Assembly (NCBI GenBank): GCA_045596605.1
Contig: JAZOCR010000143.1
Location: forward strand, 3,743-67,742
Source: Eubacteriales bacterium
GTDB lineage: Bacteria; Bacillota; Clostridia; Oscillospirales; CAG-382
DNA length: 64,000 nt
Direction of reading: 5' to 3'
Shown here: in pieces, positions 13,780-43,616 of the stretch
How the letters are laid out: the number at the start of each line of letters is the position of its first letter
Position numbering within the stretch: the stretch's first letter is position 1
Program-made: the position numbers and the translations under genes
Notes under the pieces: model-generated
Told to the model about the DNA's origin: nothing
Database searches by the model: none
Seen by the model: the letters and a program-made list of their open reading frames with translations, nothing else

Positions 13780-13799
13780 TAATGAAGTAAAAGTTTTAT

Positions 13800-14050
13800 A
13801 CGGCACGGAATATTTCCGTGCCGTATAATTTTTGATGGTATAAGGCTCTCCCTCTGGGAGAGCTGTCAGCGAAGCTGACTGAGAGGGGGGATTTCCCGAT
13901 GCCGAGAGCTGTCAACGAGACTTATTGAGAGGGGGTAATTCCCGATGCCAAGAGCTGTCAACGAGACTTATTGAGAGGGGGGGGATAACATTCAACTCCC
14001 TCTCCGACACGCCTCTCGGCGTGCCACCTCTCCCCAAGTGGAGAGGCGAA
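13800..14050 (+). repeat. Modular stem-loop repeat element, copy A (terminator + module A + 2x module B + module C)
   Basis: Terminator hairpin ACGGCACGGAA-TAT-TTCCGTGCCGT at 13800-13824. Module A has hairpins GCTCTCCC/GGGAGAGC (13845-13863) and GTCAGC/GCTGAC (13865-13879). A ~48-nt module B (..GAGAGCTGTCAACGAGACTTATTGAGAGGG) is tandemly duplicated, ending in a G8 run at 13977-13984. Module C has hairpins CACGCC/GGCGTG and CCTCTCC/GGAGAGG. Positions 13800-13889 are identical to 16733-16822. Confidence 0.85.
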
Positions 14051-14067
14051 TCCGCCACAACCGGTAG

Positions 14068-14568
14068 TCATGATTTGCCGAGGCTATTTGCAAGGTTGAT
14101 AATTTCTATCTTTTTTCTTTTGGCGTAGTCAAATGTTTTTGCCGCACCGCCGAATGAGTATTTTATGTAGCAGATTAAATAATCTGATTTATCAACCATA
14201 TATTGATTTGTCTTAATTATTTTTAGCCTTGGGGGAGTATTTAAAGGGATATTCGGTATAAATACTTCGTCAAACCATTTTAATTTTGAGTTGCCTATTT
14301 TGTTTTCCGCTTTGTTTAAATATGGAATTACAAGGTAAGCACGAAATTTATTACATTCTTCCTTTAATTCGTATATCGCTGTTGCTACTATGTTGTCAAA
14401 ATCTCCGTAATTGCCAACATAGCAATAAACTATATCGGCGGTCTGAGCAATGCTCCGAAGTGTTTCTTTGATTTGATTTTTTATTATATCGTTATCTTCT
14501 GAAATTTGAGAGTGTCCTGCGAAACAACAAGATTTTTTTGTAACTATATCTTTGCTTGAAATCATCAT
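14068..14568 (-). CDS. SLOG-superfamily DUF1273 protein (YpsA/YoqJ-like)
   Basis: The N-terminal CCFAGHS motif resembles the DUF1273 CFTGHR signature. About 166 aa. I place the start at the ATG-ATG at 14568 because a perfect TTGACA-17-TATAAT promoter (14597-14625) lies inside the longer track ORF. AGGAAAG RBS. Sampled lines are very AT-rich, about 20-35% GC. Confidence 0.7.
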   Translation of the reverse strand: MMISSKDIVTKKSCCFAGHSQISEDNDIIKNQIKETLRSIAQTADIVYCYVGNYGDFDNIVATAIYELKEECNKFRAYLVIPYLNKAENKIGNSKLKWFDEVFIPNIPLNTPPRLKIIKTNQYMVDKSDYLICYIKYSFGGAAKTFDYAKRKKIEIINLANSLGKS

Positions 14569-16732: not shown

Positions 16733-16866
16733 ACGGCACGGAATATTTCCGTGCCGTATAATTTTTGATGGTATAAGGCTCTCCCTCTGGGAGAGCTGTC
16801 AGCGAAGCTGACTGAGAGGGGGTAACTCCCGACGCCGATAGCTGTCAATGAGACTTATTGAGAGGG
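16733..16866 (+). repeat. Modular stem-loop repeat element, copy B (terminator + module A + 1x module B)
   Basis: Positions 16733-16822 match 13800-13889 at 90/90 nt. The next ~44 nt match module B of copy A with a few substitutions. Confidence 0.85.
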
Positions 16867-28842: not shown

Positions 28843-28857
28843 TTTTAGATAAAGCTT

Positions 28858-28890
28858 TCCCCGAATGGATAAAACCGTTCGGGGATTTTT
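28858..28890 (+). terminator. Intrinsic terminator after glyQS
   Basis: TCCCCGAA (28858-28865) pairs with TTCGGGGA (28878-28885), followed by TTTTT. Confidence 0.8.
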
Positions 28891-28963
28891 ATGTTGTATA
28901 ATGAAAGCTGCCGGCATCGTAGGGGTAGCTTCCAAAAGCTTTAGCTTTGCACAGTGTCGCCAA

Positions 28964-29115
28964 GGCTCTCCCTCGGGGAGAGCTGTCAGCGAAGCTGACT
29001 GAGAGGGAATGACTCCCTCTGACGAGAGCTGCAAACGAGGCTGACTGAGAGGGGCGAAGCTCAACACCCTCTCCGACACGCCTTTTGGCGTGCCACCTCT
29101 CCCGTAGGGAGAGGC
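28964..29115 (+). repeat. Modular stem-loop repeat element, copy C (module A + variant module B + module C)
   Basis: GGCTCTCCCTCGGGGAGAGCTGTCAGCGAAGCTGACTGAGAGGG matches module A of copies A and B with one substitution. Module C (CCCTCTCCGACACGCC..GGCGTGCCACCTCTCC..GGAGAGGC) matches 13998-14047. Confidence 0.8.
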
Positions 29116-29276
29116 ATATATGGCTATCCATATAGGGAGGCTACAGATGGTGCTACATATGTTGTGGCAGGGAATTGACGCTGTGAAATTTTTTACAACT
29201 TTTTTGCAATATGTATGAGAAATATTTTGTACCTTGTATTAAAATAAGAGTATAAGAAACGTGGGGAGGTGCAGAA

Positions 29277-30248
29277 ATGGATAATTCTTTTAAGGTTTAT
29301 AAAAAGCACAGAATAAAAAACTATATTTCTGTTTCGTCAATTGTTACCATACATTATTTTGAATTTGCCAAGGACTACCACTTCGACGGAGAAAGCCACG
29401 ATTTCTGGGAGCTCGTGTACGTAGACAAGGGTGAGATTATCGCAACTGCCGACACAAGTGATATAACGCTCCGTCAGGGTGAGGCTCTTTTCCATAAGCC
29501 CTACGAGTTTCACAGACTGCGCTCAAACGGAGTGTCTGCGCCAAACGTGTTTATTATAAGCTTCGTTTGCAGTGACGCCTGTATGAAGTACTTTGAAGGT
29601 AAGCATATAAATGTTCCCGCAAAGCTCAGAAGGCTCATATCGGATATTATAACGGAAAGCCAGGACACCTATAACCTTCCGGTTTTTGACAGAAACCTTA
29701 AGGATTTAAAGCTTTCAAGGGGCGCACGCTTCGGAGGCTCACAGATAATAAAAATGCGTCTTGAGGAGCTTCTTATAAAGCTTTATCGTGACGGCGAAAG
29801 CAGACGTGAGGCACCTGTTTTGCATACGCACATGGGAAAGGGAGAAAAAGGCACCTTCGGCAGTACCAAAGCAAGGTACGGAAACTCCGTACCCGATGAG
29901 GGAGAAGAAAATATTTCCGCACGCATTATAGAGATAATTAAAAAAGAGGGAATATACGGAGATATCGACCTTGACAGGATTTGTCTTCTTGTAAATTACA
30001 GAAAAACATATATTTGCACTCAGTTTAAAAAAGCCTGCGGCTACAGCGTAATGGAATACGTAAATATACTGAAAATTGATGAAGCAAAAAGGCTAATACG
30101 TGAGAAAAACCATAATTTTATGCAAATCTCAAATATGCTCTGCTTCAATAACCCCCACTATTTTTCAAAGGTGTTCAAGAAGGTTACGGGACTTTCACCC
30201 AGAGAATATCTCAATACGGTGAATAAGTATACCGCAGAAAGCAAATAA
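29277..30248 (+). CDS. AraC family transcriptional regulator (cupin + HTH)
   Basis: N-terminal cupin-like region and a C-terminal AraC HTH (FNNPHYFSKVFKKVTGLSPREY). Confidence 0.85.
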   Translation: MDNSFKVYKKHRIKNYISVSSIVTIHYFEFAKDYHFDGESHDFWELVYVDKGEIIATADTSDITLRQGEALFHKPYEFHRLRSNGVSAPNVFIISFVCSDACMKYFEGKHINVPAKLRRLISDIITESQDTYNLPVFDRNLKDLKLSRGARFGGSQIIKMRLEELLIKLYRDGESRREAPVLHTHMGKGEKGTFGSTKARYGNSVPDEGEENISARIIEIIKKEGIYGDIDLDRICLLVNYRKTYICTQFKKACGYSVMEYVNILKIDEAKRLIREKNHNFMQISNMLCFNNPHYFSKVFKKVTGLSPREYLNTVNKYTAESK

Positions 30249-30364
30249 GCCTTGGGTATTTTTTGTAATAATTGTTAATTTTTATTTATAGTGTTTTCTT
30301 TTTGACTTATTTGTGGTATAATTAACTTTACATGATAATTTATATATAATATGGAGAACTTTAA

Positions 30365-30622
30365 ATGAAGAAAATCTCATATAATCCCTCTGGCGTGTGC
30401 TCAAAGCAGATGAATATAGAAATAGACGACGAGGGAATAATCAGAAAGGTTCAGATAGTCGGAGGCTGTGCGGGAAATACCCAGGGCGTGTCAAGACTTG
30501 TTGAGGGAATGAACGCAAAAGAGGCGGCAGAGAGAATAAGAGGAATAAAATGCGGCTTCAAATCTACTTCCTGCCCAAATGAGCTTGCAAAGGCTATACT
30601 TAAATGCATTGAAAACGAATAG
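30365..30622 (+). CDS. TIGR03905-type small 4-Cys (TSCPD-like) protein
   Basis: 85 aa, with GGCAGNTQG and CG.KSTSCP motifs typical of that family (from memory). Confidence 0.7.
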   Translation: MKKISYNPSGVCSKQMNIEIDDEGIIRKVQIVGGCAGNTQGVSRLVEGMNAKEAAERIRGIKCGFKSTSCPNELAKAILKCIENE

Positions 30623-39049: not shown

Positions 39050-40063
39050 TTAATTTATTGGTTTGAGATTATATTCGCTTTCGCCGGCATATTCGTCCCA
39101 GCCATCTGTAGCAGGGTCGTAGTAAATGGTCGGCTCTCCGAAATAATTGCTTTCTTCAGTAAACTCGGGACAGTCACCTATAAAGCGAAGCTCGATTTGC
39201 CACGCAGGAGAAGCGCTCTTTACTGTAAACGGCAACGGAGAAAATTTGGTTACACCCTCCGGAATAACTATTTCAACGTCTGATGTTATACCAAAGAAAG
39301 CATAGCCGTCTATTTCTTCTCTGCCTTTGTCAAATATGATTTTTTCAAGGCTTGGATTGTCATAAAATCTCGCCTCATCAACCGCCATAAGATTAAGTGT
39401 GGCAGGAATGTTTACGGTTTTAAGAGAAGTACATAAGCCGAAAGCACCTGCGCCGATTTCTGTAAGGTTTTTCGGCAAAGTAATCTCCGAAAGCACTGAG
39501 CACTCATAAAAGGCTTTTTCTCCTATCTCGTTTAGAGTTTCCGGCAGTTTTATTTCTTCGAGAGTTGAACACTTTGTAAAGGCAAGACCGTCAATCTGTT
39601 CGATTTGTGTCGTTGAAATATCAAGCTCCCGGAGTTTTTCGCAGTCCTCAAAAGCACAACCGCCAATAATTGTCAAATTTGAATTTTCAGGAATTGTCAC
39701 GTCTTCAAGTTCTTTACAGCCTTTAAAAGCACAATAACCGATTGACTTTACCGAATCCGGAATTACGATACTTTTTATATTGCAGTTTTCAAATGCGCCC
39801 TCGTTTACTGCATCGGGTGAGCTTTCGTCTTTAGCCCCTTTTATTGCAGTTACGGGAATACCGTCAATTTTTGCCGGAATAACCACGTTTTCTGATGTAC
39901 CTACGTACTTGTTTATATAAATAAATTTTCCGCTTTCAGATACTTCGTATTGAAAATCGCTTGCAGGATTTTCTGCAAGTGTTTTGTCAGACTGAGTGTC
40001 ACACCCCACAAAAGACGAAATAGTCATTATAAGAGTCAAAAGTAAAGAAATAGCAGTTTTCAT
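39050..40063 (-). CDS. BspA-type leucine-rich-repeat lipoprotein (paralogue 1)
   Basis: Start at MKTAISLLLTLIMTISSFVGC (lipobox) after AAAGGAG. Repeats follow the pattern IP.SV..IG..AF..C..L. A 13-bp-stem terminator lies at 39006-39043. Confidence 0.8.
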   Translation of the reverse strand: MKTAISLLLTLIMTISSFVGCDTQSDKTLAENPASDFQYEVSESGKFIYINKYVGTSENVVIPAKIDGIPVTAIKGAKDESSPDAVNEGAFENCNIKSIVIPDSVKSIGYCAFKGCKELEDVTIPENSNLTIIGGCAFEDCEKLRELDISTTQIEQIDGLAFTKCSTLEEIKLPETLNEIGEKAFYECSVLSEITLPKNLTEIGAGAFGLCTSLKTVNIPATLNLMAVDEARFYDNPSLEKIIFDKGREEIDGYAFFGITSDVEIVIPEGVTKFSPLPFTVKSASPAWQIELRFIGDCPEFTEESNYFGEPTIYYDPATDGWDEYAGESEYNLKPIN

Positions 40064-40095
40064 AAATATGCTCCTTTCAGGTGAAGTGAATTTGC

Positions 40096-41019
40096 TTACC
40101 AAATCTCAGCCGGGAATCCGTTCCAAGTTGGCGAAGTAAAGCCCTCAGCGCCCTTGTGAAAATACACAGTGAAATCTGAGGTGTATTCTTTGGAGCTATC
40201 TCTAAATGCATCGTCTATGGTTTCCTTTCCAAAAAGAAATTCTTCCGGCGCATTTCCTTCAAATTTTACGGTCTTTAAACCGCAGTTTATAAATGAATAC
40301 TTGGATAGTGATTCTACTGTTTTTGGAATAACAATTTCTGACAACCTAAGATTATGTGCAAAAGCTGCGTGCTGAATGGTTTTCAAGCCTTCGTTTAGTA
40401 TTACTTTTTCTAAATCATAACATCCACAAAAAGCTTGCATTCCAATTTCTTCTACTGTACTGGGCAATACAACCTTTTTAAGATTTGTTTCATAAAAAGC
40501 CTCTGCCGGAATACACTTAACTCCCTCTTTTAGCTCAACAGTTTCAAGCCCTGAACAGGAAAAAACTGCCCAACTATCAGTATTTAAACAATCCGAAGGA
40601 ATGGTGACATGCTTCAATGAAGTACAATAAGAAAACGCTTCTGCACCTATTTCTGTCAGCGACTTCGGCAAAACTACCTTTTCAAGACTTGTGCAAGATT
40701 CAAATGCACTTCCGCCGATGGTTTTTAATGTTTCCGGCAAAGTTACAGAAACAGTAACGGAATCCGGAGTGTCAAGTATTCGAAAATCAGACAGCTCCGT
40801 TACCGGCTTTCCGTCAATTTCAGCAGGCACAACTACGTGCTCAAAATCACCGGAGTAGTGAGTTATTGTGATTCCACCGTCTTCATTTTCTGTGTATCCA
40901 AAGTATTCAAGCGGAGTTTCGGGTAAGTCTTTTATGTTGCCGGATGTTTTATCACCACAGCCAACAAAGGATGAAATAGTCATTATTAATGTCAAAAGTG
41001 AAGAAATAGTAGTTTTCAT
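40096..41019 (-). CDS. BspA-type leucine-rich-repeat lipoprotein (paralogue 2)
   Basis: The signal peptide MKTTISSLLTLIMTISSFVGC and the 5' UTR are almost identical to those of the downstream paralogue. Same LRR pattern. Confidence 0.8.
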   Translation of the reverse strand: MKTTISSLLTLIMTISSFVGCGDKTSGNIKDLPETPLEYFGYTENEDGGITITHYSGDFEHVVVPAEIDGKPVTELSDFRILDTPDSVTVSVTLPETLKTIGGSAFESCTSLEKVVLPKSLTEIGAEAFSYCTSLKHVTIPSDCLNTDSWAVFSCSGLETVELKEGVKCIPAEAFYETNLKKVVLPSTVEEIGMQAFCGCYDLEKVILNEGLKTIQHAAFAHNLRLSEIVIPKTVESLSKYSFINCGLKTVKFEGNAPEEFLFGKETIDDAFRDSSKEYTSDFTVYFHKGAEGFTSPTWNGFPAEIW

Positions 41020-41127
41020 AAATATACTCCTTCCAGGGGAAAAATATGGTTATCTCTTTGAAAAAAATTATCCTTATTATAATAATACAGAATTGCTTCC
41101 GGGAAATCCACATATAAAAGCTACGCG

Positions 41128-43231: not shown

Positions 43232-43232
43232 G

Positions 43233-43616
43233 TCTTGACCTGCCAGTAAGCCGTGTTCTGTATCTGGCAATCATCTATCTTGTCCTTACGTTACCGTAAG
43301 GCTCTGTGCCACTTGCGGCGAGCCGAGCAAGCTTTGCACCGGAACCGGTGCGTGCCACCTCGTGTTGCTTCGGATAGGGTTTACAGGAGTCCTGTGTTAC
43401 CATAGGACCCGGTGAGCTCTTACCTCGCCTTTCCACCCTTGGCTCTGCGAATGCTCGCTTTCATACCTCCATAAAGAAGTAGTAGCCGGTATATCTCTGT
43501 TGCACTCTCCCTGGGGTCACCCCCGGCGGACGTTATCCGTTATCCTGCTCTGTGAAGCACGGACTTTCCTCACTCAGACCAAAAAGGTCCTTTGCGCGAT
43601 TGCCTTGACAGGTCAG
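43233..43616 (-). ncRNA. rnpB: RNase P RNA
   Basis: The reverse strand contains GAGGAAAGTCCG, AGGGTGGAAAGGCGAGGTAAGAGCTCACCG, GTAAACCC, AGATAGATGATTGCC and ACAGAACACGGCTTAC in the canonical order. P1 pairs TGACCTGTCA (5' end) with TGGCAGGTCA (3' end). It has its own promoter and terminator. Confidence 0.92.

Follow-up and report, generated by a model that had tools for sequence, protein, structure and literature searches.

Descriptions of BoxC/PIT/TM repeats go back to the 1990s, and to our knowledge neither their origin nor their function is agreed upon; the earlier work on BoxC/PIT is reportedly that of Bachellier in the 1990s and of Hoyne et al. in 2000. We likewise know of no role assigned to DUF559, a very large protein family.

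Besides E. coli, over 260 other genomes contain intrastrand-triplex motifs of the BoxC/PIT/TM_ECO kind (Holder et al. 2015, PMC4666352), and the ITxF definition sets both of their loops at 1-6 nt (PMC4666352). The same study saw no triplex of the E. coli motif in double-stranded DNA or in vivo, and linked TM motifs to genomic instability and to no known mobile element (PMC4666352). As summarised in that paper, tests by the Maher laboratory gave neither promoter nor terminator activity for PIT/BoxC. Among nucleases, I-Bth0305I is a Vsr-like (EDxHD) homing endonuclease (PDB 3r3p) whose family includes free-standing selfish genes (PMC3239194).

In the 64-kb window analysed here (the whole stretch of 64,000 nt), three gene-less loci belong to a widespread family of structured inverted-repeat elements. 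As in BoxC/PIT/TM, a pyrimidine tract, a purine tract and a mirror purine tract follow one another: an E. coli example reads CCCTCTCCC-TGT-GGGAGAGGG-TTA-GGGTGAGGG, and the window reads CTCTCCC-TCT-GGGAGAG-[hairpin]-GAGAGGG. Both families are intergenic and multi-copy, lack strand bias and sit at rearrangement-prone loci, and both form inverted pairs of two sequence types, A+B in BoxC/PIT/TM and S+W here. Unlike BoxC/PIT/TM, with a second loop of 1-6 nt, the window family has a covarying hairpin of 16-30 nt at that place, and published triplex finders would thus miss it. Its tracts of 7-8 nt also differ, as do its hosts, which are mainly Clostridia, plus Alphaproteobacteria, Negativicutes and Actinomycetota.

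The family shares with REP/BIME/REPIN sequences short extragenic palindromes, many copies and mosaic clusters, and with REPINs the inverted doublet as apparent unit and the absence of target duplication. A REPtron and the DUF559 cassette described below both hold a small nuclease-type gene between inverted repeat copies, but RAYT is a Y1 (IS200/IS605-like) transposase, whereas the cassette gene encodes a Vsr-like PD-(D/E)XK protein (PF04480). Unlike REP, the arms have no GTAG-type guide tetranucleotide and combine two hairpins with a triplex-type tail, and the family is common to several phyla whereas REP families are species-specific. The gene-less elements resemble MITEs (Correia, RUP, BOX) in being small and non-coding with terminal inverted repeats, in outnumbering a longer gene-bearing form with the same ends, and in often creating spurious ORFs. 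Unlike in MITEs, no target-site duplication (TSD) was detected, the gene-bearing form encodes no known transposase, and only one or two gene-less elements appear, anecdotally, to be deletion derivatives. The I-Bth0305I family and the DUF559 cassette both place a nuclease gene in a compact, sharply bounded insert. However, DUF559 is a separate subfamily with 3hrl as its closest structure, and the cassette, unlike I-Bth0305I, does not sit in an intron or intein, came with no empty target allele that could be defined, and encodes a protein that lacks the extra N-terminal DNA-binding region.

Three gene-less repeat elements in the window

The three copies and the neighbouring T hairpins are laid out as follows (scores are those of covariance model R1).

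13796..13838, + strand: T1, a perfect 15-bp hairpin with a T-run, found by the terminator scan; intrinsic terminator of the MFS gene
13842..13889, + strand: S arm (module A) of copy 1; 64.7 bits, E=2e-19
13890..13984, + strand: two tandem degenerate S arms (modules B) of copy 1; from repeat search family D2 and the sequence
13996..14049, - strand: W arm (module C) of copy 1, inverted relative to the S arm; 44.6 bits, E=1e-12
16733..16767, + strand: T2, second copy of the T hairpin, 3' of the 492-aa gene
16775..16822, + strand: S arm of copy 2, identical to that of copy 1; 64.7 bits
16823..16866, + strand: degenerate S arm (module B) of copy 2; core 16837-16866
28962..29009, + strand: S arm of copy 3; 63.3 bits
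29010..29053, + strand: degenerate S arm (module B') of copy 3; core 29024-29053
29065..29117, - strand: W arm (module C) of copy 3; 51.4 bits, E=6e-15

The S arm of copy 1 consists of hairpin 1 (GCTCTCCC/GGGAGAGC), hairpin 2 (GTCAGC-GAA-GCTGAC) and the G-rich tail TGAGAGGG. Its two module B cores (13904-13933 and 13950-13979) have a period of 46 nt, a G8 run at 13977-13984 closes the tandem block, and the W arm tail (CCCTCTC) and the S-type tail (GAGAGGG) are base-paired in the fold. Copy 2 is without a W arm and is thus a truncated element. In copy 3, a small hairpin, AGAGGG-AATGACT-CCCTCT (29002-29020), lies 5' of the module B' core.

The repeat search of the window recovered a 134-nt block of 96% identity (13800-13933 and 16733-16866), four copies of the A/B modules and two of the C module, the latter against 0 expected; the 30-mer GAGAGCTGTCAGCGAAGCTGACTGAGAGGG occurs three times exactly, against 0 in 100 shuffles. 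The covariance model finds five arms in the window. Its minus-strand matches at 13996-14049 and 29065-29117 identify module C as an inverted homologue of module A, that is, a "W" variant of the same arm type on the opposite strand, while module B is a degenerate version of module A, the S arm. All three modules, the T hairpin and the G8 run lie where a sequence-only reading of the window had placed them; its module grammar stands as to which modules are present and reduces to a simpler rule, (S)n and then an inverted W arm. That reading did not include the inverted relation of A and C, the triplex-type mirror symmetry or the link to DUF559. Both strands of the elements fold very stably and equally well (z -5.4 to -7.5). 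The 64-kb window holds no DUF559 gene.

No Rfam family matched at its gathering threshold, either on the window elements or on 10 related loci. The consensus of the serC leader of alpha-proteobacteria (RF00517), CgGuGGGACACCCCUCCCCAA..GAGGGGCga, resembles the outer half of an inverted W arm. It is the described leader of one gene, whereas the window family is a dispersed repeat, and we rejected identity of the two: this only sub-threshold match of the e-value scan scored 22.9 bits, below the gathering score of 35.

Architecture and covariation of the arms

Four parts make up the arm, which is about 48 nt long. A pyrimidine tract and a purine tract pair as hairpin 1; hairpin 2 comes next, and the last part is a tail of purines that is the mirror image of the purine tract. 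Loop 1 measures 3-7 nt, and loop 2 is replaced by the conserved hairpin of 16-30 nt. The S and W tails of one element pair with each other. Both hairpins covary strongly, with 96-98% stem pairing and compensatory changes at 11-12 of 14 pairs; none of 500 shuffles reached these values, and slid controls were about 50% paired. Substitutions across the family thus preserve the stems. G-U pairs make up less than 1% of cells, which fits a constraint on both strands.

Mirror symmetry was scored as allowed class II triads (G*G.C / A*A.T / T*A.T) between the tail and the purine strand of hairpin 1. The family reaches 6.88 of 8, against 5.63 +/- 0.08 in 1000 shuffles (maximum 5.88); in the window, the S arms reach 7/7 (GGGAGAG / GAGAGGG) and the W arms 8/8. 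The marker bases that distinguish S from W are coupled in 374 of 374 arms. In hairpin 1 and the tail, the two arms within an element agree far more often than do arms taken from different loci. Hairpin 2 differs between the two arms of an element, and each arm keeps its own local hairpin.

Distribution and dynamics of the family

The covariance model detects more than 500 arms in about 200 loci across Clostridia, the main hosts, Negativicutes, Actinomycetota and Alphaproteobacteria; 259 arms lie in 100 genome or viral loci and 264 in 80 metagenome loci. Counts from nhmmer and from our purpose-written structural scanner are lower bounds, as both are less sensitive than the covariance model. The inverted S+W pair is the commonest doublet (40 of 45), and tandem S-arm arrays with periods of 46-50 nt also occur outside the window. 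The modules are thus found well beyond this stretch, tandem module duplication is a family trait, and the proposal of a dispersed, mosaic hairpin-repeat family of REP/BIME kind, not a single duplicated segment, is borne out. Phage and plasmid collections gave partial matches in 11 unannotated gut phage contigs and one plasmid, and these few matches point to a mainly chromosomal element.

Several observations bear on the dynamics of the family. Copy 3 is absent from a syntenic relative, module number varies between sister species, window copies 1 and 2 are homogenised, one locus (L004) carries a single doublet three times, at different sites and each time with the same spacer, and some elements lie at rearrangement boundaries. 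The flanks of 60 isolated elements had no excess identity indicative of a TSD (k=2-8, offsets 0-5), no element yielded a precise empty/filled pair, and a 26-mer from an element flank, used to look for an empty site among viral contigs, returned only the self-match.

The pseudo-ORFs across the window elements, 13925-14128(+) and 28889-29131(-), exist as described. That such proteins litter annotations finds little support: only eight relatives, all weak, were found among 1.84 billion representative proteins.

Hairpin T and the transcriptional context

The terminator scan scored T as intrinsic-terminator-like at 13796-13828 and 16733-16757, in agreement with the sequence-only reading. T is a local feature outside the repeat family: T-type hairpins occur only at these two neighbouring window sites and at the same two sites in the sister species (locus L127), and about 210 further family-bearing loci lack them. 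T was thus rejected as a family module. The glyQS gene has a terminator of its own (28858-28885), and copy 3 lies beyond it. A GC-rich hairpin with a direct U-tract is present in T and in the glyQS terminator but in no window arm, and the scan called no window arm as a terminator. Because all three elements are downstream of real terminators, they lie mostly outside the upstream mRNAs. Crude ORF calls around 40 asymmetric gene-less elements gave no orientation bias family-wide: 7 elements had co-directional flanking genes, 4 anti-directional, 5 convergent and 10 divergent ones. Outside the window, about half of the elements end in a hairpin plus TTT.

DUF559 cassettes

In many genomes, two arms enclose or directly abut a gene of about 120 aa for a DUF559 (Vsr-like PD-(D/E)XK) endonuclease. 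In L015, L073, L106, L109, L026 and L054, the arms lie 353-355 nt apart around a PF04480 protein (E=3.6e-30). This cassette is a discrete unit of about 470 bp in unrelated genomic contexts: homology between cassettes starts at AAAGCCTCCC and ends at GGGAGCCTTT, the flanks are unrelated, and the arms are nearly identical around a diverged CDS. The Shine-Dalgarno (SD) sequence GGAGG belongs to the W arm and precedes the ATG by about 7 nt; the stop codon falls within the inverted S arm. In the fold of the full cassette transcript, the whole 5' arm pairs with the whole 3' arm and buries GGAGGG (-161 kcal/mol, z=-8).

Arms are present at 76 of 80 DUF559 loci chosen by protein alone, a sample that comprises only the 80 closest relatives of proteins themselves found beside arms. 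By hand tally of the 80 loci, an inward arm lies within 100 nt 5' of the ATG in about 58, and an arm lies at or just after the stop in about 42; the stricter purpose-written scanner gives lower bounds of 30/77 and 27/76, respectively. By that scanner, 25 W and 6 S arms lie on the 5' side of the gene, and 24 S and 3 W arms on the 3' side. At L145-147, L158 and L058, the DUF559 gene lies beside the element, not inside it.

The gene-less elements (100-200 bp) share their arms with the 470-bp cassettes and, among S arms, outnumber gene-bearing ones by about 10 to 1; they have perfect stems, form tandem arrays and occupy many unrelated sites. A remnant of the DUF559 CDS is recognisable in only one of 32 spacers, a C-terminal one at L067 (blastn 0/32; blastx 2/32 against 1 in the shuffled control, only L067 being convincing). 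In one sister-species element, SD-ATG is fused to the last codons, ..PLSQLR*. A conserved mini-ORF in gene-less elements was also considered and rejected, as the ATG is kept in only 2 of 56.

The association of arms and DUF559 recurs in Clostridia, in an alphaproteobacterial MAG (L033) and, in relic form, at E. coli ycjD. The latter DUF559 gene ends inside a BoxC-like sequence, with TM_ECO no. 9 about 165 nt downstream. The covariance model finds nothing in the ycjD flanks (best 6.5 bits), where the resemblance is to the hairpin-less BoxC form. Neither 'ycjD' nor 'endonuclease' occurs in PMC4666352, the DUF559 link is not mentioned there, and our literature search found no paper describing DUF559-flanking repeats.

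Residues D51, E62, D64 and H68, of catalytic type, are invariant among the cassette proteins. The closest solved structures are 3hrl (the best match, of unknown function) and the homing endonuclease I-Bth0305I (3r3p; profile E=2.8e-4). Matches in PHROGs are weak, and defence-system libraries gave only weak nuclease-domain matches. The cassette partner encodes a Vsr-like nuclease domain only and no known transposase.

Discussion

Together, the findings suggest that the window repeats are of a selfish, nuclease-associated kind and not portable terminators. The explanation that we favour, and judge somewhat probable, is that the gene-less window copies are non-autonomous, MITE/REPIN-like partners or derivatives of DUF559 cassettes, spreading at the DNA level; that the nuclease drives this spread we infer. 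In such a mechanism, the DUF559 nuclease would break or nick the non-B-DNA arms, and recombinational copying after these breaks would multiply and homogenise the elements, to which slippage and gene conversion may add. The elements would have no dedicated role for flanking genes, and the T terminator would have been co-duplicated locally with one arm. A bolder proposal, which we put forward tentatively and rate as less than probable, is that the DUF559 mini-gene and its triplex/hairpin arms constitute a previously unrecognised autonomous selfish element across phyla, whose nuclease would nick or cut the arms while host recombination copies the cassette or doublets into other arm-bearing sites.

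The arms could also be passive or self-propagating non-B-DNA repeats of BoxC/PIT type, multiplied by slippage and recombination alone as instability hot spots, with DUF559 as a frequent lodger that inserts into such repeats or is kept there and has no causal part. This picture fits the mirror symmetry of triplex type, the 46-50 nt periodicity of the arrays, the position of elements at rearrangement boundaries and the lack of a TSD, as well as the link of TM motifs to instability but not to mobile elements (Holder et al., PMC4666352), and most gene-less elements bear no trace of a DUF559 CDS. We nevertheless think it unlikely: the gene exactly fills the gap between the tails, with the W tail as ribosome-binding site and the S arm as stop; the arrangement is strongly asymmetric (25:6 in favour of W on the 5' side, 24:3 in favour of S on the 3' side); arms accompany 76 of 80 protein-selected genes and are better conserved than the CDS; and the association recurs in Clostridia, the alphaproteobacterium and E. 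coli.

Two RNA-level explanations fare worse. One takes the arms as cis-acting RNA of the DUF559 mRNA, a 5'-UTR/3'-UTR panhandle hiding the ribosome-binding site of a potentially toxic nuclease, with the window copies as relics of DUF559 genes that decayed where they stood. The buried GGAGGG, the SD and stop codon within the arms, the fused SD-ATG of the sister species and the L067 remnant speak for such a panhandle. Relics would decay, however, and the excess of gene-less elements, with perfect stems, tandem arrays and many unrelated sites, makes it improbable; the locally kept hairpin 2, different in each arm, and the scarcity of G-U pairs, which fits a both-strand constraint, point the same way. 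The other is the model of the sequence-only reading, a portable terminator or 3'-UTR cassette acting as RNA-level stabiliser, processing site or protein platform for the upstream gene. In its favour are the common orientation of the three copies after + strand genes, the strong terminator T at two of them and the very stable folds of both strands, and about half of the elements elsewhere do end in a hairpin plus TTT. We consider it very improbable, since only two sites in this lineage have T, no arm in the window carries a U-tract, the elements come after terminators and not before them, the 40 elements have no orientation bias and both strands fold equally well. The absence of promoter and terminator activity in PIT/BoxC, in the Maher laboratory tests as summarised in PMC4666352, also stands against it.

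In practical terms, the elements generate spurious ORFs, mark rearrangement boundaries and break gut Clostridia assemblies, and a covariance model of the arms would improve annotation. More broadly, our data tie a BoxC/PIT/TM-type arm architecture, extended by a conserved hairpin, to DUF559 genes. They lead to a concrete hypothesis in which the target of a Vsr-like nuclease is a non-B-DNA repeat; a single purified protein and a handful of oligonucleotides would suffice to test it. If the DUF559 cassette is indeed an autonomous selfish element, this would also account for the BoxC/PIT repeats of E. coli and would give the DUF559 family a function.

Two arm types make up the hairpin repeats

Three hairpin-repeat loci of the window (copies 1, 2 and 3; 13800-14050, 16733-16866 and 28964-29115) were described in the sequence-only reading as a mosaic of three modules, A, B and C. 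The sequence is as described, with the modules, the G8 run (13977-13984) and both predicted pseudo-ORFs in place. A repeat search of the window recovered a 134-nt block shared at 96% identity by 13800-13933 and 16733-16866; a third, weaker copy lies at 28920-29053. The A/B unit occurs four times and module C twice (0 expected), and the 30-mer GAGAGCTGTCAGCGAAGCTGACTGAGAGGG has three exact occurrences in the window versus none in 100 shuffles.

The modules are thus real, but their grammar is simpler than proposed. The basic unit is an arm of ~48 nt, consisting of hairpin 1, hairpin 2 and a purine tail. Two types exist: the S arm (GGCTC..GAGC-TG-[hairpin 2]-C-TGAGrGG) and the W arm (GCCTC..GAGG-TG-[hairpin 2]-C-GGAGrGG). 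Module C is the reverse-complement analogue of A, and module B is a degenerate S arm with hairpin 1 gone and hairpin 2 eroded; an intermediate form of B lies at the matching site in a sister species (locus L127). An element thus has the form (S)n plus a trailing W arm in inverted orientation. An arm covariance model (R1), trained on 54 arms and run with filters off, detects five full arms and no others across the 64-kb window, the S arms at 63-65 bits and the W arms at 45-51 bits.

Full arms and composition of the window elements
13842-13889, +, S arm, copy 1
13996-14049, -, W arm, copy 1
16775-16822, +, S arm, copy 2
28962-29009, +, S arm, copy 3
29065-29117, -, W arm, copy 3
Copy 1: S + 2 degenerate S + W'
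Copy 2: S + 1 degenerate S, truncated
Copy 3: S + 1 degenerate S + W'

The tails of the two arm types pair with each other, that of S being G-rich and that of the inverted W C-rich. In predicted folds of copies 1 and 3, both strands form these hairpins equally well (z -5.4 to -7.5).

Two further features of the window are listed here. The second looks like the 5' ends (ribosome-binding site and ATG, minus strand) of two tandem paralogous genes.
43232-43615, -, RNase P RNA class A, bacterial (228.7 bits, full length)
40000-40085 and 40956-41041, 86-nt direct repeat (86% identical, 956 nt apart)

The family spreads across phyla and its stems covary

The S-arm 24-mer core occurs in at least 120 stretches of the genome collection. 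Among the matches listed, most are MAGs of Oscillospiraceae, Acutalibacteraceae and other Clostridia, together with isolates of Phenylobacterium, Bifidobacterium colobi and Megasphaera elsdenii and further MAGs of Caulobacteraceae, Hyphomonadaceae, Selenomonadaceae and Deinococcus; six viral contigs also match. No Rfam family reaches its gathering score on the elements. The outer half of the inverted W arm (14017-14060, +) matches the RF00517 serC leader consensus at 22.9 bits (threshold 35), and this alpha-proteobacterial "leader" may itself belong to the repeat family. Some elements of other genomes carry extra inverted modules outside the arms, such as GTCCCGCCGCAGCGAC ... GCCTGCGGGCGGGAC, and others have different palindromic modules within long spacers, such as GTAGGGGAGGGGTTCTACCCCTCCC (L001 4210-4850; L094; L066 2120-2650), and module types in the mosaic are more numerous than the window displays.

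R1 found 259 arms in the first 100 loci. Covariation, which the sequence-only reading had put forward as a check, demonstrates that both hairpins are preserved. In an alignment of 130 distinct arms, 98.3% of cells are paired, with both-sided changes at 11 of 14 pairs and 197 compensatory cells; none of 500 shuffles reached these values, and slid registers pair 38-52%. An independent arm set, from loci picked by protein only, gives 96.1% paired, 12 of 14 pairs compensatory and 252 compensatory cells. The W-arm hairpin 2 is hypervariable in sequence, yet always a hairpin. Elsewhere this hairpin (e.g., GGCACGGC..GCCGTGAC) often keeps a G.A mismatch at its second position (compare window 14001-14047, -), which makes up 30 of the unpaired cells at the second hairpin-2 pair in the protein-selected set. 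G-U pairs occupy less than 1% of cells, which fits a constraint on both strands. Hairpin 1 including its loop is common to both arms of one element in 35% of cases, versus 4% between loci, and tail complementarity is 91% within an element versus 70% for arms of different loci; thus, elements evolve as units.

The arm tail mirrors hairpin 1

The tail mirrors the purine strand of hairpin 1 rather than complementing it; strand and tail read GGGAGAG / GAGAGGG in the window S arms and GGGAGAGG / GGAGAGGG in the window W arms. Over 120 distinct arm variants, 6.88 of 8 positions form allowed purine-motif triads, versus 5.63 +/- 0.08 (maximum 5.88) in 1000 shuffles of the tails. One base at the foot of hairpin 1 tells S and W arms apart; in 374/374 arms it is coupled to the tail's first base (C with T, G with G), which Watson-Crick pairing cannot account for.

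The same design is found in the E. coli intrastrand-triplex repeats BoxC/PIT/TM_ECO, e.g., CCCTCTCCC-TGT-GGGAGAGGG-TTA-GGGTGAGGG. These occur 23 times in K-12, comprise two types that pair as inverted A+B doublets, and are linked to loci that have been rearranged (Holder et al. 2015, PMC4666352). Unlike in BoxC/PIT/TM_ECO, a conserved hairpin replaces the 3-nt second loop here. Since the published triplex-motif search permits loops of 1-6 nt (PMC4666352), it would miss the present family.

Arms enclose DUF559 nuclease genes

At several genome loci, an S arm and an inverted W arm lie 353-355 nt apart and enclose an ORF of ~120 aa on the strand opposite module A, which encodes a Vsr-like DUF559 protein (PF04480, E=3.6e-30). 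In gene orientation, the W arm of such a cassette ends directly before the start codon (..ACGGAGGGATTGTA-ATG), and thus its tail serves as the Shine-Dalgarno sequence. The stop codon lies in hairpin 2 of the inverted S arm, into which the ORF extends (..CAA TCC CTC AGT CAG CTT CGC TGA). The cassette is sharply bounded: in an eight-cassette alignment, homology starts at AAAGCCTCCC and ends at GGGAGCCTTT between unrelated flanks, and the arms are nearly identical whereas the coding region has diverged. Residues D51, E62, D64 and H68 are invariant, and the protein profile matches PDB 3hrl (8.6e-24) and the homing endonuclease I-Bth0305I (3r3p; 2.8e-4). In an alphaproteobacterial MAG (L033), too, a DUF559 gene is flanked by an S arm on one side and a W arm on the other.

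To avoid ascertainment through arms, 80 metagenome loci were chosen by DUF559 protein alignment only. R1 found 264 arms in their 217 kb, compared with 5 in the 64-kb window, and none above 16 bits in five loci of close relatives (~35 kb in total). By hand tally, 76/80 loci have at least one arm. In ~58/80 an arm faces inward and ends no more than 100 nt from the start codon, and in ~42/80 an arm covers the stop or follows it by up to 100 nt; a stricter scanner sets lower bounds of 30/77 (start side) and 27/76 (stop side). With this scanner the arrangement is polar, W being 5' by 25:6 and S 3' by 24:3. Some DUF559 genes adjoin complete elements instead of sitting inside one, and tandem arm arrays are common beside them. 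The arrays consist of S arms (period 50 nt) or whole doublets (period ~130 nt), as in L147 (1240-1340 and 1888-2090), L160, L173, L199 and L200, and neighbouring units carry compensatory hairpin 2 changes (GTCACC..GGTGAC versus GTCATC..GATGAC). No DUF559 gene was found in the window (best tblastn E-value 0.25). A non-exhaustive search of literature mentioning DUF559 found no description of flanking repeats.

The E. coli K-12 DUF559 gene ycjD terminates within a degenerate BoxC-like sequence (L213, NC_000913.3 1351030-1351840); next come a duplicated piece of the gene's C-terminal coding region and then a complete BoxC/TM_ECO motif. TM_ECO no. 9 (Holder et al. 2015, PMC4666352) lies ~165 nt downstream of ycjD, and a 56-nt segment at the locus has a median of 16 occurrences per E. 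coli genome. Holder et al. (PMC4666352) mention neither "ycjD" nor an endonuclease.

Elements change in number and content

The host is a Clostridia member of low GC (42.8%), whose GlyRS is 92-94% identical to MAG proteins, with Acutalibacteraceae or Oscillospiraceae as named relatives. The sister species (L127; flanking protein 87% identical) has an element at each of sites 1 and 2, preceded in both cases by a T-like hairpin, and thus these insertions are older than the species split. Its site 1 holds a single B-like arm + W', indicating that module number changes over time. Its two copies differ much more than window copies 1 and 2, whose high identity points to gene conversion in the window lineage.

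The syntenic relative L211 keeps the order Peptidase_C39-glyQS-TSCPD-PGM and lacks both copy 3 and the following AraC-family gene; copy 3 is lineage-specific. The ~1.25 kb extra in the window between glyQS and TSCPD/PGM (28848-30416) consists of copy 3 and the AraC-family regulator gene (29277-30248), placing the element at an indel edge. In L004, one doublet recurs at three separate sites of a 5-kb stretch, each time with the same 44-nt spacer.

A gene-less element of L127 (6215-6275, -) carries a Shine-Dalgarno sequence, 7 nt, and ATG TTA TAC CCT CTC AGT CAG CTT CGC TGA (MLYPLSQLR*), in which the start codon runs straight into the terminal codons usual for cassette DUF559 ORFs; the window counterpart (13968-13991, -) reads MLSPPSQ*. 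The ATG is kept in just 2/56 gene-less elements, and thus this fusion is not general. The metagenome contigs L129, L130 and L131 share the 5' flank of the same cassette, and in one of them a differing 3' flank begins exactly at the arm end, which suggests recombination at the element.

The window elements lie beyond terminators

The sequence-only reading took the hairpin opening copies 1 and 2 (T) as a module of a portable terminator and considered an RNA-level role in the 3' UTR. T scores as terminator-like at 13796-13828 and 16733-16757, and its stem shows a compensatory A-T to G-C change in L127. The other ~210 loci, outside the window and L127, have no T-type hairpin, so T is a local feature, co-duplicated with an arm, and was rejected as a family module. 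The gene upstream of copy 3 has a separate terminator (28858-28885) that precedes the element. All three window elements sit 3' of an intrinsic terminator, and none carries its own U-tract. Among 40 asymmetric gene-less elements, whose neighbouring genes were called with a crude ORF caller, no orientation relative to those genes is preferred; the genes are co-directional in 7 cases, anti-directional in 4, convergent in 5 and divergent in 10. PIT elements showed neither promoter nor terminator activity, according to the summary in PMC4666352. Together, these results leave both the portable-terminator and the 3'-UTR readings unsupported. In a cassette transcribed whole, a ~50-bp panhandle is predicted between the arms with the ribosome-binding site buried, and this could restrain nuclease expression.

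A model for element copying

The main rival to copying driven by the nuclease is passive amplification of non-B-DNA repeats, with DUF559 genes as mere residents. Nuclease-driven copying is weakened by three results: no target duplication was found at elements, no orthologous filled/empty pair was found, and CDS remnants are rare in gene-less elements. Set against these is the tight and polar association of arms with DUF559 genes. We propose a model in which the Vsr-like DUF559 nuclease would act on the arms, and this action would drive the copying of both cassettes and gene-less doublets.
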